Source of the DNA: Nitrososphaeria archaeon
GTDB lineage: Archaea > Thermoproteota > Nitrososphaeria > JACIWG01
NCBI GenBank assembly: GCA_050011875.1
Contig: JBEKIG010000012.1
Location: 1 to 64,000 of the forward strand
Reading direction: 5' to 3'
Length of the DNA stretch: 64,000 nucleotides
In this document: positions 26,524 through 37,702 of the stretch, piece by piece
How the letters are laid out: the number at the start of each line of letters is the position of its first letter
Position numbering within the stretch: the stretch's first letter is position 1
Notes under the pieces: model-generated
Seen by the model: only the letters and a program-made list of their open reading frames with translations
Told to the model about the DNA's origin: nothing
Database searches by the model: none
Made by a program: the position numbers and the translations under genes

Positions 26524-27195
26524 ATGGGTATGAGCTACATTATCGTGGATCACAGAGAGTCCAAGTCTTCGGTGCCATTTCTGTTAAAGGAAATGGGCAT
26601 CAGAGTTGAATTCAAATTTTTGGAAATTGGTGATTACATTATAAACTCTGAAATAGCTGTTGAAAGGAAGACTCTACACGATTTTATTTCCTCTCTATTT
26701 GATGGCCGCCTATTTCAACAGGTAGACCGTCTCTCATCAAATTACTCTTCACCTTTTCTGATAGTTGAAGGGAACTATAGCGAAATTGAGGTATACGTTC
26801 AAAATCCGAAGTCAGTATACGGTGCATTAGTGTCCCTTCTGTTGATCTATAGGATCAATTTGATCAATGTACCTTCTGAAAGAGAAACAGCTGTTGTGCT
26901 GTCTTCATTAGCTAAACAATTTTCTAGGAAGCCCTCTTATTCCATAAAACATGCAAAGAAAGAAAGCTTCATAGACCAACAGATTTACGTTATTTCTTCT
27001 CTGCCAAGTGTGGGAAAAACGATTGCCACCAGGCTCCTGGAGCAGTTTGGTTCACCAAAGGAAGTTTTCCTAGCCTCTACTGACGAACTTGCAAAAATTA
27101 AAGGCTTAGGGCCTAAAAGAGCAAGAGAAATAAGATCATTGCTTGATACTTCATGGAAAAGATACAGAAATTACTTCGAAAACATAGGCAAATAA
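26524..27195 (+). CDS. xpf: Short-form XPF/ERCC4 endonuclease with HhH2
   Basis: VDHRE, GDY, VERKT, DGRLF, C-terminal HhH pair. Confidence 0.9.
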   Translation: MGMSYIIVDHRESKSSVPFLLKEMGIRVEFKFLEIGDYIINSEIAVERKTLHDFISSLFDGRLFQQVDRLSSNYSSPFLIVEGNYSEIEVYVQNPKSVYGALVSLLLIYRINLINVPSERETAVVLSSLAKQFSRKPSYSIKHAKKESFIDQQIYVISSLPSVGKTIATRLLEQFGSPKEVFLASTDELAKIKGLGPKRAREIRSLLDTSWKRYRNYFENIGK

Positions 27196-27227: not shown

Positions 27228-27830
27228 ATGAGCAATAATAGCACAAAGGTCAAAGACAAGGCTATTATTCTCTTAGACGTAATCAAGGAAAATTTATCTC
27301 AACTTGAAGAAAAAGAAGTTGAACAGTTCATCGAAATTCTGAAATCCCATAAAAATAATAAACTCCTAATCATGGGTGCAGGAAGAAGTGGACTTGTCGG
27401 ACGGGCCTTCGCAATGCGTTTGCTTCACCTAGGCTTTAATGCATTCGTCCTCGGAGATACAATCGTGCCTTCAATAGACAAGGACGACCTAGTTATTGCT
27501 ATATCTGGCTCTGGTTCTACGAAATTGATTGTTACAGCTGCTCAAGCAGCTCAACAAGTTGGCGCTAAAATTGTATCCTTAACGTCTTATCCTTCTTCGC
27601 CACTTGCTAAACTATCAACTCATACGGTGCTTCTTAGAGGTCGAATAGAAGTGTCTACAAAAGACTATTTTGCAAGGCAGATATTAGGTTTGCATGAACC
27701 TCTAGCCCCTCTCGGCACTGTCTTTGAGGATAGCGCGATGTTGCTTCTGGATTCTGTCATAGCATCATTGATGGTGCAACTTAATGTTGAAGAGGCAGAG
27801 ATGCGTAGGAGGCATGCCAACATCGAATAG
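27228..27830 (+). CDS. hxlB: 6-phospho-3-hexuloisomerase (SIS fold)
   Basis: GAGRSGLV, AMRLLHLG, ISGSGST, PLGTVFE, HANIE. Confidence 0.9.
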   Translation: MSNNSTKVKDKAIILLDVIKENLSQLEEKEVEQFIEILKSHKNNKLLIMGAGRSGLVGRAFAMRLLHLGFNAFVLGDTIVPSIDKDDLVIAISGSGSTKLIVTAAQAAQQVGAKIVSLTSYPSSPLAKLSTHTVLLRGRIEVSTKDYFARQILGLHEPLAPLGTVFEDSAMLLLDSVIASLMVQLNVEEAEMRRRHANIE

Positions 27831-27884
27831 ATTTACCAAAATCTTTTAAAAGTATCTGTTTAGTGGTTTAGTGTATGATTTACT

Positions 27885-30108
27885 ATGCCAAGATATAAGT
27901 CTACTACGGAAGCATTAAAGATAATAGGCAACAAAGATCAGATTCGAAAGGCCTAGAAATAACAATTCTAGCCCGAATTATCTGGGCGTTGTTGCTCACG
28001 TAGACCACGGTAAAACGACAATGAGCGATAGCCTCCTAGCCGCATGCGGTATGCTCAGTCCTTCCCTCGCTGGGCAAGCGCTAGCTCTGGATTATATGGA
28101 CTTGGAACAACAAAGGCAGATGACCATCAAAGCAGCAAACGTCACACTTTACTATGAGCAAGATAATGTTCCATATGTTATTAACCTTATCGACACACCT
28201 GGTCACATCGACTTTACCGGTAGAGTTACGAGAAGTTTGCGCGCAATCGACGGTGTTGTTGTTGTTTCTGATGCAGTTGAAGGCGTAATGACGCAGACTG
28301 AAACCGTTACTAGGCAGGCTTTAGAAGAGAGGGTTCGTCCTGTACTTTATATTAATAAGATTGATCGATTAATCAAGGAACTTAAGCTTCCACCTGAAAA
28401 GATGCAGGCTTGGCTTGCGAACATTATTAACGATTTTAATAATCTGATTGATATATATGCTGAGACCGAATATAAAGATAAGTGGAAGGTTAGCATACAA
28501 GATAGCAGCGTCGCTTTTGGTTCAGCAAAAGACAGATGGGGCTTCAACTTTACGACCACTCAGAAGAGAAGTGTAAAATTCAGCGATATCTACAAGGCTT
28601 ATGAAGAAGGTGATATGAAAACTCTCTCGGAAAATTTTCCGTTACACGAAGCCATTCTTTCAATGGTTATTAAACATCACCCACCTCCACATGTCGCTCA
28701 ACGATATCGTATTCCAAAAATATGGAAGGGTGACCCGGATTCTGAAATCGGTCAATCGTTGGTTAACTGCGATGAAAAGGGTCCGATCGTAATGATGGTT
28801 ACAAACGTTGTAGTGGACCCTCAAGCCGGAGTCGTCGCCGTTGGAAGGCTGTTCTCTGGAACAGTTCATGATGGTGATGTAGTATACCTGCACGACGCTA
28901 AGACTCAAGCGAGGATACAATCGGTTAACATGTTCATGGGTCCTTTTAGAGAACTCATAGGTGTCTTAGGTTCTGGCAATATACCTGCTCTGCTAGGACT
29001 GGACGCCGCCAGGTCAGGAGAAACGGTTTCCTCAGTCAAAGATATAACACCATTTGAGGTGATAAAGTACGTTTCCGAACCTGTTGTCACAATTGCTGTT
29101 GAGCCAAAGTTTCCGCGTGATCTACCTAAATTGATTGATACCTTAAGAAGAATCTCTATCGAAGACCCAAACCTCGTCGTCAAAATCAATGAAGAAACAG
29201 GAGAAATGCTGATGGCCGGTATGGGTGTATTACATCTTGAAATCGCAACCACTCTCATACAACAGGCAGGGCTTGAAATTGTGACGACTGAACCTTTGAT
29301 TAACTATCGTGAGACAATCACAGGTTCAGCAGGTCCAATCATGTCCAAATCACCTAATAAACATAACCGCATCTTCATCAAAGTAGAACCCCTTACCCCT
29401 GAAATAATTGAATTAATCAGGAATAACACAATCAACGAACAGCTTGATAAAAAGACGGTGGCCAAAATATTAAGAGAGCACGGCTGGGACGCAGATGAAG
29501 CGAGGAATGTTGTTTTAGTTGATAACAAAGGAAACATATTCGTTGACGCAACTAAGGGTGTACAATTTATGCAAGAGTCAATAGATTCGATAAAGGTTGG
29601 TTTTTCGAATGTGATGGAGAATGGTCCTTTAGCGCAGGAAGCGTGTAGAGGCATTAAAGTTATACTTCATCACGCAGAATTTCACGAGGATTCAGCACAT
29701 AGAACATATGCGCAGCTTCTACCGGCTTCTAGAAGCGCAATATTGGGTGCAATGCTCCTAGCGAATCCAACGCTTCTCGAACCGATATTAGGTATCGAAG
29801 TCAAAGGAAGCAGCGATCTTATAGGTGCTATCGCAGGTGTTATTTCAGGTAGAAGAGGAAGAATGCTTGATGTCCAACAAAAGGGTATTCTGACGATAAT
29901 CGAGGGCGTAATTCCTGCATCTGAAACATTCGATCTTAGTGAAGCTATGAGGGGAGCTACGGCAGGTAAAGCTATGTGGAATACCCATTTCAAAGAATGG
30001 AATATAGTTCCCCAAAGTCTATTACCGCAGTTAATCGTATCAATCAGGAAGAGGAAGGGTCTAAGCGAAACGTCACCTACAGCGGATGAGTTCATCGACA
30101 AAGAATGA
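27885..30108 (+). CDS. fusA: Translation elongation factor aEF-2, join(27885..27948,27980..30108), 730 aa after splicing
   Basis: Exon 1 MPRYKSTTEALKIIGNKDQIR, junction N, exon 2 LGVVAHVDHGKTT...DTPGH...NKID. The ORF-track start at 28021 lacks the G1 motif. Confidence 0.93.
27949..27979 (+). other. 31-nt bulge-helix-bulge intron in EF-2 mRNA
   Basis: CAGA/TCTG exon helix, TTCG/CGAA 4-bp central helix, AAA and TTA 3-nt bulges, GGC+TAGAA intron stem. Removal restores the frame. Confidence 0.85.
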
Positions 30109-36288: not shown

Positions 36289-37179
36289 CTATCGAATCAC
36301 CATTTTTTCGGCAATAAATGCTATGAAACCAAGCAGCATTCCAATTAAAGCAAATTTTTTAACACGATATACATTTGCGCTCGAATAATTTTTTAGTATT
36401 GAGTAAGAGAGATAAACAAACAGTGCGTCAGGAACCATCACCATGGCCAAATACAGTATCCCTGCTTGTTTTGAGAGGTAAGGTCCAAAGGTGGAAAACA
36501 CCGCCAGGATAAAAAGAGTTGCACCAGCTCTAGCAGAATTTTCTTCTCCAATGGAATGAGTTATCGATTTGACTCCTCTTGTTCTATCCCCTTCTGCGTC
36601 AGATATCGTTTTTATGACTTCTCTCCCTGTAACAGCTAAAAAGGACACTATAACAGCCCAGAGAAGCAAGGAAGATGAGCCTAAAAAAAATGTGCCTTGA
36701 ATAGTTGGAACCACAGCAGCTGAGACCACGCTACCGTAGATGTAGGGAATCGAGGTTGAAAGTGCGACCGTCAGATTTCCGATAATTCCCTGTTTCTTTA
36801 GATAGAAGTTGTAAAACCAAGATATGAATCCAAATACTACAGTGATAATGAATCCTGTCAGGCTTGTTAATAATGAGAATACTATGCCGAGAAAAAGTAA
36901 TGTTATAGCATAAGCCCAAGCTACAGAAATTTTTATTTCACCTTTGACAAGAGGTCTATTCAGCCGATTAACACGGTCAACCTCTATATCATAAATATCA
37001 TTGACTACCATCGAGAAACTTGCGACAAAGAAGCCAGTTAAAAAACCAAAAAGAGTTTTCCATACGAGAACCGCCTGCAAAGAAGTAAGAATGACACCGA
37101 TAATTACGGCCGCGCCTACCATAACGCTATTTGTAGGCCTGATCATCTTAAAGTACGTGTTTAAACTAATTTTCTGCAT
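36289..37179 (-). CDS. Digeranylgeranylglyceryl phosphate synthase (UbiA family)
   Basis: IRPTN, NDIYDIEVDRVNRLNRPL, REVIKTISDAEGD. Confidence 0.88.
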   Translation of the reverse strand: MQKISLNTYFKMIRPTNSVMVGAAVIIGVILTSLQAVLVWKTLFGFLTGFFVASFSMVVNDIYDIEVDRVNRLNRPLVKGEIKISVAWAYAITLLFLGIVFSLLTSLTGFIITVVFGFISWFYNFYLKKQGIIGNLTVALSTSIPYIYGSVVSAAVVPTIQGTFFLGSSSLLLWAVIVSFLAVTGREVIKTISDAEGDRTRGVKSITHSIGEENSARAGATLFILAVFSTFGPYLSKQAGILYLAMVMVPDALFVYLSYSILKNYSSANVYRVKKFALIGMLLGFIAFIAEKMVIR

Positions 37180-37702
37180 TAAAGACCGCCTCAGATATCT
37201 GATAATATATCACTTCTCCCCTTCTATCTATAACTGCTATGATAGATTTCTTCCCCATCCTTTTAATATCAATAGCATCCTGTACGATCTTCTCAAATCT
37301 AACATCATTTCCTTCATTTAAAACGAAGACAACATATTTTGCTGTCTTTTTACCATATTCCCCTTTATCGTAGACTCTAAAGTCAACCCCGAAACCGAAG
37401 CCTTCTTTGACAATAAAACCTCTGCTCCTAAGGTCTCTATAGACTAGAAATCTGGTTAGAATTTCCTTATCTTTATTGTAGAGTATGCCTATTAAACTGT
37501 CAAAGTTTATGATCTTCTTCTTTCCAATCACGTCAACCCTATTAATACTGCAAAGATAGAGCGCTTCATAGGGGTTCAACACAAGACTCTTTCTTTCCTT
37601 TTCTCCAAATCCACTCTGGTAAAGTTCTTGGGCATCATCAAAATTTTCAATAACAATGCGATTTAATTTTAACTTTCCAGAAAGTCTTGTTTCCTGACCC
37701 AT
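37166..37702 (-). CDS. endA: tRNA-splicing endonuclease subunit, probably structural (beta)
   Basis: EALYL, VYRDLRSRG, GFGVDFRVY, IDRRGEVIYY. The protein contains no His. Confidence 0.85.
   Translation of the reverse strand: MGQETRLSGKLKLNRIVIENFDDAQELYQSGFGEKERKSLVLNPYEALYLCSINRVDVIGKKKIINFDSLIGILYNKDKEILTRFLVYRDLRSRGFIVKEGFGFGVDFRVYDKGEYGKKTAKYVVFVLNEGNDVRFEKIVQDAIDIKRMGKKSIIAVIDRRGEVIYYQISEAVFNAEN

Follow-up and report, generated by a model that had tools for sequence, protein, structure and literature searches.

Splicing of archaeal messenger RNA (mRNA) by the tRNA endonuclease has rested for two decades on a single gene, cbf5, whose pre-mRNA intron is reportedly also treated by Watanabe (2002) and Yoshinari (2006). 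In Crenarchaeota, cbf5 carries a short bulge-helix-bulge (BHB) intron inside its coding frame, in a lineage with an (alpha-beta)2 endonuclease (Yokobori 2009, PMC2738675). The passages of PMC2738675 on this intron describe a patchy distribution among relatives, which implies gain and loss, and note that gene finders take the intron for a frameshift; the cbf5 work is also cited in PMC5829648. Here we describe a 64,000-nucleotide stretch of DNA (the window; positions 1 to 64,000 of contig JBEKIG010000012.1) from a soil-type archaeon of the class Nitrososphaeria, in which the gene for elongation factor 2 (EF-2, fusA) is interrupted by a 31-nucleotide (nt) insert. We consider it very likely, from the sequence evidence presented below, that the single archaeal EF-2 gene of this genome carries a BHB intron that must be removed to make EF-2. 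Its candidate intron resembles that of cbf5 in being short, lying within a coding frame, being patchily distributed and occurring in a lineage of the (alpha-beta)2 type. It differs from that of cbf5 in its host gene, in the class Nitrososphaeria as its setting and in the presence of two intron sites 33 nt apart. Furthermore, splicing has been demonstrated experimentally for cbf5, whereas for EF-2 it is predicted.

Three other systems invite comparison. The BHB introns of pre-tRNAs and pre-rRNAs share the geometry and the predicted cuts of the EF-2 insert, and the enzymes that act on them are also encoded in the genome studied here. Unlike in tRNA introns, the exon half of the EF-2 motif consists of codons rather than an anticodon arm, and the product is an mRNA, so that timing relative to translation matters. 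The eukaryotic HAC1 and XBP1 mRNAs likewise lose a short intron without the spliceosome, with tRNA ligase or RtcB sealing the exons, and the removal likewise shifts the frame and decides whether active protein is made, as set out in the passages of PMC4090602 on these mRNAs. Unlike EF-2, HAC1 and XBP1 depend on IRE1 and on another recognition structure, and they constitute a proven stress-regulated switch. Finally, the inteins found in the P-loops of essential proteins are also self-removing insertions and, in EF-2, affect the same short stretch of codons. Inteins encode a homing endonuclease and leave at the level of the protein, whereas the EF-2 intron would be removed at the RNA level and encodes nothing.

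According to the passages of the cbf5 paper on this subject, splicing had not been confirmed for any other archaeal pre-mRNA (PMC2738675), and a 2018 endonuclease paper lists three references for pre-mRNA, each of them on cbf5 (PMC5829648). In the full-text literature, a coverage that leaves subscription journals and supplements outside, no paper describing a BHB intron in an EF-2 gene came to light, and cbf5 was the sole documented mRNA; a preliminary description of the present locus had likewise named crenarchaeal cbf5 as the well-documented case. The mechanism itself, tRNA-type splicing, is already known. As far as our searches reach, the novelty lies in the host gene and its lineage, in the existence of two sites and in the co-occurrence with an intein. 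Finding another host gene would mean that such splicing is not confined to one gene, and EF-2 would extend it to an essential, highly expressed gene, to a different archaeal class and to two independent positions.

Anatomy of the interrupted EF-2 gene

Reading from the ATG at 27885 gives 23 residues and then reaches TAG at 27954-27956, while the P-loop reading (LGVVAHVDHGKT...) lies in the +1 frame from 27982. The N-terminus encoded by exon 1 matches that of intronless relatives residue for residue in layout. The frame of exon 2 is open over 726 amino acids (aa) and contains the Pfam domains GTP_EFTU, EFG_III, EFG_IV and EFG_C. The first start codon in this frame, ATG 28021, lies downstream of the P-loop, so that the downstream part could not function as a protein by itself. 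The longest open reading frame (ORF) in the ORF list of the window, with 695 aa, begins at this ATG. An EF-2 split into two polypeptides was rejected on the same grounds, since the exon-2 frame offers no start before ATG 28021. The insertion point, hereafter site A, falls between bases 1 and 2 of the Asn codon in the conserved Ile-Arg-Asn (IRN) motif; the P-loop lysine follows 12 codons further downstream (Table 1).

Joining 27948 to 27980 in silico produced 730 codons and a stop. The joined product aligned without gaps to the intronless 730-aa EF-2 of a relative (G059), with 520 of 730 residues identical. The preliminary description proved exact to the base in its coordinates, all of its proposed base pairs are standard, and its claim that removing 31 nt yields a 730-aa EF-2 was borne out by the in silico joining and the gap-free alignment. 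Its further claim, that unspliced mRNA encodes 23 aa, agrees with the translation from ATG 27885. Unspliced mRNA would thus yield only this peptide, together with a second frame that has no start upstream of the P-loop.

The genome is 97.2% complete, with 4.8% contamination, and contains one EF-2 gene. The only other match to EF-2 is a different GTPase (E = 3.9e-6), and a second intact fusA, which the preliminary description had said would refute splicing if it occurred together with only unspliced transcripts, was not found in this 97.2% complete genome. The seven GTP_EFTU-family genes of the genome show no interruption besides the EF-2 insert, and its cbf5 gene is uninterrupted as well. These data bear on the notion that the gene is simply broken, being a pseudogene or an artefact of assembly or binning in which a BHB-like fold arose by coincidence. 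Minimal BHB-like motifs are indeed frequent by chance, and all of the genomes are metagenome bins. However, the gene is the sole EF-2 of a 97% complete genome, and EF-2 is indispensable; the other 708 codons show no damage and share 61-97% identity with those of relatives; and 25 independent assemblies have an insert at this codon boundary, with differing sequences. We therefore attach next to no probability to a broken gene and return to a BHB intron as the preferred explanation.

EF-2 is a standard phylogenomic marker, and its longest plain ORF in the window lacks the P-loop. For this reason, automatic EF-2 calls in carrier lineages will probably be shortened or marked as frameshifts, judging from the ORF list of the window.

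Table 1 Coordinates of the EF-2 gene, its predicted BHB motif and related genes (window positions unless a contig is named).
Feature	Position	Strand	Basis or remark
EF-2 exon 1: start codon, 21 full codons, first base of Asn codon	27885..27948	+	translation
Outer (exon) helix, 5' strand	27939..27942	+	pairs with 27981-27984, 4 base pairs (bp)
Central helix, 5' strand, exon bases, 4 bp	27943..27946	+	pairs with 27974-27977
5' three-base bulge	27947..27949	+	predicted cut after 27948
31-nt BHB intron (predicted), site A, with in-frame TAG 27954-27956	27949..27979	+	pairing and relatives
Intron hairpin (inner helix): 3 bp, bulged C27953, 5 bp, 7-nt loop	27950..27973	+	
Central helix, 3' strand, intron bases	27974..27977	+	
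3' three-base bulge	27978..27980	+	predicted cut after 27979
EF-2 exon 2: P-loop to C-terminus and stop codon	27980..30108	+	Pfam, open frame
Outer helix, 3' strand, exon 2 bases	27981..27984	+	
Splicing-endonuclease subunit, structural (beta-like) type	37166..37702	-	PF01974, 80.7 bits
Splicing-endonuclease subunit, catalytic type	C9:5024-5266 (other contig)		
EF-2 of G008 with insertion	L086 = G008:C2:49200-51700	-	Pfam Intein_splicing, LAGLIDADG_3

The bulge-helix-bulge motif and its conservation at site A

A BHB is defined by two 3-nt bulges a 4-bp helix apart, and catalysis proceeds via the 2'-OH of the second bulge nucleotide, according to the passages of PMC5829648 on the motif; for this reason we placed the cuts after 27948 and 27979. 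The two bulges at site A lie on opposite strands with a 4-bp helix between them, and outer and inner flanking helices are both present, as in the strict hBHBh' form. Removal at the positions given by this rule restores the full 730-aa product here and the IRN and P-loop reading in 28/28 versions, and compensatory changes occur in the inner stem at site A and in the central helix at a second site, B, described below. The inner stem is formed by pairing of 27950-27952 with 27971-27973 and of 27954-27958 with 27966-27970 around a loop at 27959-27965. The region 27930-27995 folded with -17.5 kcal/mol (z = -3.06), and 2/200 shuffles folded equally well, so that folding gives limited support. The centroid structure contained 3/4 central pairs, with the register shifted at the 3' bulge, and RNAalifold applied to 28 sequences recovered the inner stem and the outer helix.

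We analyzed the distribution of site A in relatives at several scales. In a first comparison with 60 relatives, every member of the window's family, f1, with a visible gene start had an insert at the same codon boundary, and families other than f1 read straight through. When all prokaryotes, represented by a single genome for each species, were scanned with an exact pattern, 31 matches were returned, 16 of them in EF-2 genes of metagenome-assembled genomes (MAGs) labelled Nitrososphaeria, Nitrososphaerales, Nitrosopumilales, Thaumarchaeota, Candidatus Nitrosocaldus or, in one case, only uncultured archaeon; the other 15 were bacterial and attributable to chance. We then surveyed 401 genomes of the class, using an intronless EF-2 as query and reading the candidate gene starts. 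This set includes five unpublished genomes (G364, G230, G326, G282 and G131), all of them non-matches belonging to f5 or f12. Scanning the 401 genomes for the site-A motif gave 22 matches, one per genome, and none with a reversed control pattern. All 22 have the intron-plus-exon layout, and those that were located lie at the start of the EF-2 gene. Three more genomes of f11 contain introns longer than the scan pattern allows, raising the total to 25/401.

By family, site A was present in 8/9 genomes of f1 and in the window's own genome, in 10/10 of f11, 4/4 of f14, 1/1 of f19 and 1/1 of f20, and in none of the other 15 families among the 401 genomes, including f5 (0/224) and f12 (0/78). G005, the sole member of f1 that lacks the motif, is 76% complete and gave no match to EF-2 whatsoever; with this one exception, site A occurs in every sampled member of five families. 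One MAG of f11 is labelled Candidatus Nitrosocaldus, and Nitrosocaldus enrichment cultures exist. As a separate observation, one f12 genome encodes an EF-2 of normal length with one in-frame TAA inside the match (L093, G246:C18:19203-21401).

The 28 distinct versions of the site-A insert range from 16 to 63 nt, and their length modulo 3 is 1 in 18 versions, 0 in seven and 2 in three. Splicing by the rule given above led all 28 to the same reading, IRN-(L/F)-G followed by the P-loop. Left unspliced, all 28 run into a stop in 8 codons or fewer, and this holds also for the seven that are divisible by three in length. The third base of the 5' bulge is A or T in relatives; in the 3' bulge, relatives differ at positions one and two but share an A at position three. 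Single-sequence folding found the inner hairpin in 27/28 versions, the exception being the 16-nt version. This shortest insert (L076:121-164; G245, f11) has two to three possible inner pairs and a loop of 3-5 nt, and is close to the smallest conceivable BHB intron. In every version, the stop in the exon-1 frame lies at most 8 codons from the 5' splice site and is mostly a TAG in the 5' arm of the hairpin. Such an early stop could reflect selection for a quick end to unspliced translation, or shared ancestry combined with A+T-rich sequence.

The same features raise the question of translational recoding, in which the ribosome would bypass the insert, as in phage T4 gene 60, or frameshift over it, without any splicing. 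A stop within a few codons of the break, a hairpin just after it in all 28 versions, and CGAA at both ends of the insert together recall the take-off site of T4 gene 60. However, the lengths of 16-63 nt span all three classes modulo 3, and no single frameshift rule fits them. The sole repeated codon of the kind that a bypass element needs is CGA, and a ribosome landing on its second copy would not be in frame with the P-loop. Moreover, the CGAA repeat is a simple consequence of the central helix being palindromic; at site B, the same BHB geometry is built from a different sequence; and recoding leaves the invariance of the non-coding strand of the central helix unexplained. Recoding thus appears extremely improbable, and these patterns are better accommodated by a BHB intron.

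Covariation was counted on the alignment of the 28 sequences, using the structure of the preliminary description. In the inner stem, 6/9 aligned pairs change on both sides. The covariation score of this stem was 0.261 against a shuffled mean of 0.121, and 0/500 shuffles reached it, although this shuffle test overstates the significance because related sequences are not independent. Sliding the partners by 1-3 columns lowered the proportion of paired cells from 88% to 24-59%; this control, and the variety of the hairpin sequences, are independent of the caveat about kinship. All four pairs of the central helix are invariant in 28/28 sequences, though the 3' strand is non-coding, and three pairs of the outer helix are kept in 28/28. 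Aligning fusA across related genomes, as the preliminary description had proposed, placed the insert at the same site in 25/401 genomes, with a hairpin that covaries (6/9 pairs).

Apart from the inflated shuffle test, several results weigh against a BHB intron. A minimal motif (outer and inner helices of at least 3 pairs each, 4 central pairs, two bulges of 3 nt and a spacing of 16-120 nt) has 23,006 matches on both strands of the 2.64-Mb genome, and hence is common by chance; the 2 kb around the EF-2 gene contain ten. By itself, the BHB motif is no better than chance and is weak evidence. The minimum-energy structure lacks the central helix, and RNAalifold, run on the 28 sequences, produced no 4-bp central helix but paired columns 11-12 with 80-81 instead. 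The central helix of site A never varies and so provides no covariation, its 5' strand being fixed by coding, and the outermost C-G pair of the outer helix is kept in only 6/28 sequences. Lastly, a search of metagenome contigs with a degenerate exon-junction pattern found no cDNA and returned 12 long genomic contigs that are intronless.

What lifts this instance above chance is that the motif coincides with the frame break, that its removal restores the frame exactly, and that it is conserved with covariation in relatives. The chance for one named pair of splice sites is about 4 in 100,000, by arithmetic from the genome-wide motif count. Under a lenient filter, 346 of the 23,006 genome-wide matches join two open frames when removed, and most of these are evidently junctions of neighbouring genes.

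The 12 contigs found with the junction pattern are closest to relatives in f5, f12 or f16/f19, at 72-87% identity, and none is near-identical to an intron-bearing genome. These intronless contigs (L127-L138) have the same Ile-Arg-Asn codons, ATT CGA AAT, as the intron carriers. In the intronless genes of the first comparison with relatives, the Arg codons differ from the CGA of the carriers. The presence of ATT CGA AAT in intronless genes could be the footprint of precise intron loss or could mark a preferred insertion site.

Splicing enzymes and the predicted pathway

The genome contains two PF01974 (tRNA_int_endo) genes and one RtcB gene. The PF01974 copy on contig C9 is closest to crenarchaeal EndA chains of similar length, 3p1z_B, 3ajv_B and 2zyz_B, which we take to be catalytic chains, and it also matches the C-terminal (alpha) half, residues 219-356, of the fused Methanopyrus protein 5x89_A. 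The catalytic residues of the EndA paralogues were judged by eye against what we assume to be the catalytic motif. The other copy lies 9 kb downstream of the EF-2 gene, and the best solved match of its product is the EndA-like N-terminal half of 5x89_A, residues 16-178; we assign this half as the beta part in line with how PMC5829648 describes the fused protein. The genome thus encodes one catalytic-type and one structural-type EndA paralogue, the combination expected of an (alpha-beta)2 enzyme. Passages of PMC5829648 and PMC4090602 attribute (alpha-beta)2 or alpha2beta2 endonucleases to Thaumarchaeota and report that (alpha-beta)2 enzymes accept relaxed motifs. ARAGORN predicted introns in 8/49 tRNA genes of the genome.

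On this basis, we propose the following pathway. In the EF-2 transcript, exon bases 27939-27946 would pair with 27974-27977 and 27981-27984 to form the outer and central helices, and the intron hairpin would provide the inner helix, leaving two 3-nt bulges on opposite strands. An (alpha-beta)2-type endonuclease would cut after the second base of each bulge (27948 and 27979), and RtcB would join the exons into an mRNA for the 730-aa EF-2. The 31-nt intron would probably be freed as a small circle. The core of the preliminary description, that BHB removal at 27948/27949 and 27979/27980 is needed, is supported by the single gene copy, the recurrence in 25/401 genomes, the uniform reading of 28/28 spliced versions, the covariation and the enzymes.

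Cleavage and ligation, like formation of the circle, are steps that we infer, and thermodynamic folding does not favour the central helix. The insert might accordingly be removed at the RNA level by an agent other than EndA and RtcB, such as another endonuclease or ligase, or a self-processing RNA. Against this, the 16-nt version is far too small for a ribozyme intron, and its existence excludes a ribozyme. In addition, the conserved parts of the insert are the features that EndA reads, namely 3-nt bulges on opposite strands 4 bp apart (as given in the part of PMC5829648 on recognition), and EndA and RtcB are both encoded in the genome. Removal by another agent is therefore very unlikely.

As to what a BHB intron spliced by EndA and RtcB does in EF-2, the simplest view is that the cell tolerates it as a genetic element. 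Its stability may stem from the strong conservation of the codons that make up the exon half of the structure by which it is recognized. Any regulatory function that would couple translation capacity to RNA processing is speculation.

A second intron site, inteins and evolution of the locus

Five of the 401 genomes contain an insert at a different position, site B (L068-L072, from G284, G318, G374, G332 and G393). The insert, 28-32 nt long, splits the P-loop within its His-Gly-Lys codons, with site A lying 33 nt upstream, and was found in 1/11 genomes of f13, 2/2 of f15 and 2/4 of f16. It has the same BHB geometry, and the same cut rule restores the Gly-Lys-Thr-Thr reading. The central helix is ACGG/CCGT in f15 and ATGG/CCAT in f13, so that a synonymous change in the His codon is matched in the intron strand. 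In f16, 1/4 central pairs is an A-A mismatch, a relaxed form of the motif. The three site-B hairpins are unrelated in sequence and all fully paired. As a pattern in sequences, site B provides independent support for functioning BHB introns in the EF-2 mRNA of this class.

Inteins, or insertions resembling them, occupy the same region. An in-frame insertion after the P-loop Lys is present in the EF-2 of G008 (f1), of G010, G035 and G044 (f2) and of G369 (f17). Its first residue is Cys, its last two are His-Asn, followed by Thr, and the open frames reach 1264-1372 aa. The G008 insertion has Pfam support (Table 1); those of G010, G035, G044 and G369 (L087, L088, L091 and L092) were read by eye only. 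G008 contains the intein and a site-A intron together, 45 nt apart. An intein and an intron at the same codons form a natural system for comparing RNA-level with protein-level self-removing elements. Two genomes of f3 (G036 and G054) also have similarly long EF-2 open frames, of 1324 and 1348 aa, an observation of length only.

To place the introns on a phylogeny, we used a quick EF-2 tree built from this single gene (57 rows, LG+G4; L093, L121 and L124 left out). At least four changes are needed on this tree for site A and at least three for site B, and the carriers in f11 and f14 are sister to the intronless f5 and f12. The approximately unbiased (AU) test rejected monophyly both of the 19 rows with site A (p = 0.004) and of the five with site B (p ~3e-31). 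The tested groups had been chosen with the tree already in view, and the EF-2 gene could itself have been transferred. The intron distribution is thus patchy, and a single gene cannot separate gain, loss and transfer.

A broader interpretation would treat the first 100 nt of EF-2 in Nitrososphaeria as a hot spot for repeated BHB introns and an intein, with the supply of EF-2 gated by the tRNA-splicing enzymes as a checkpoint like that of HAC1 and XBP1. We regard this combination as rather unlikely. If it were true, BHB introns would still be able to enter protein-coding genes or to leave them precisely.

We also considered a casposon origin of the insert. The casposon target is the 3' end of the EF-2 gene. 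Casposon integration in the EF-2 gene is known in Thaumarchaeota, and the passages of PMC6563490 on it concern whole elements in ef-2, not 31 nt; since no BHB would be left by such an event, this origin was rejected.

Upstream of the start codon, in the region 27843-27884, an A+T-rich box (TTTTAAAA) lies about 35 nt before the ATG, and a block conserved among f1 relatives (TAGTGGTTTAGTG) stands between this box and the start codon. Their arrangement suggests a short leader, in which case some 60 nt would separate the 5' end of the mRNA from the intron. Further upstream, two ordinary neighbouring genes lie on the same strand as EF-2: an ERCC4/helix-hairpin-helix nuclease of 223 aa (26524-27195, +) and a SIS-domain protein of 200 aa (27228-27830, +).

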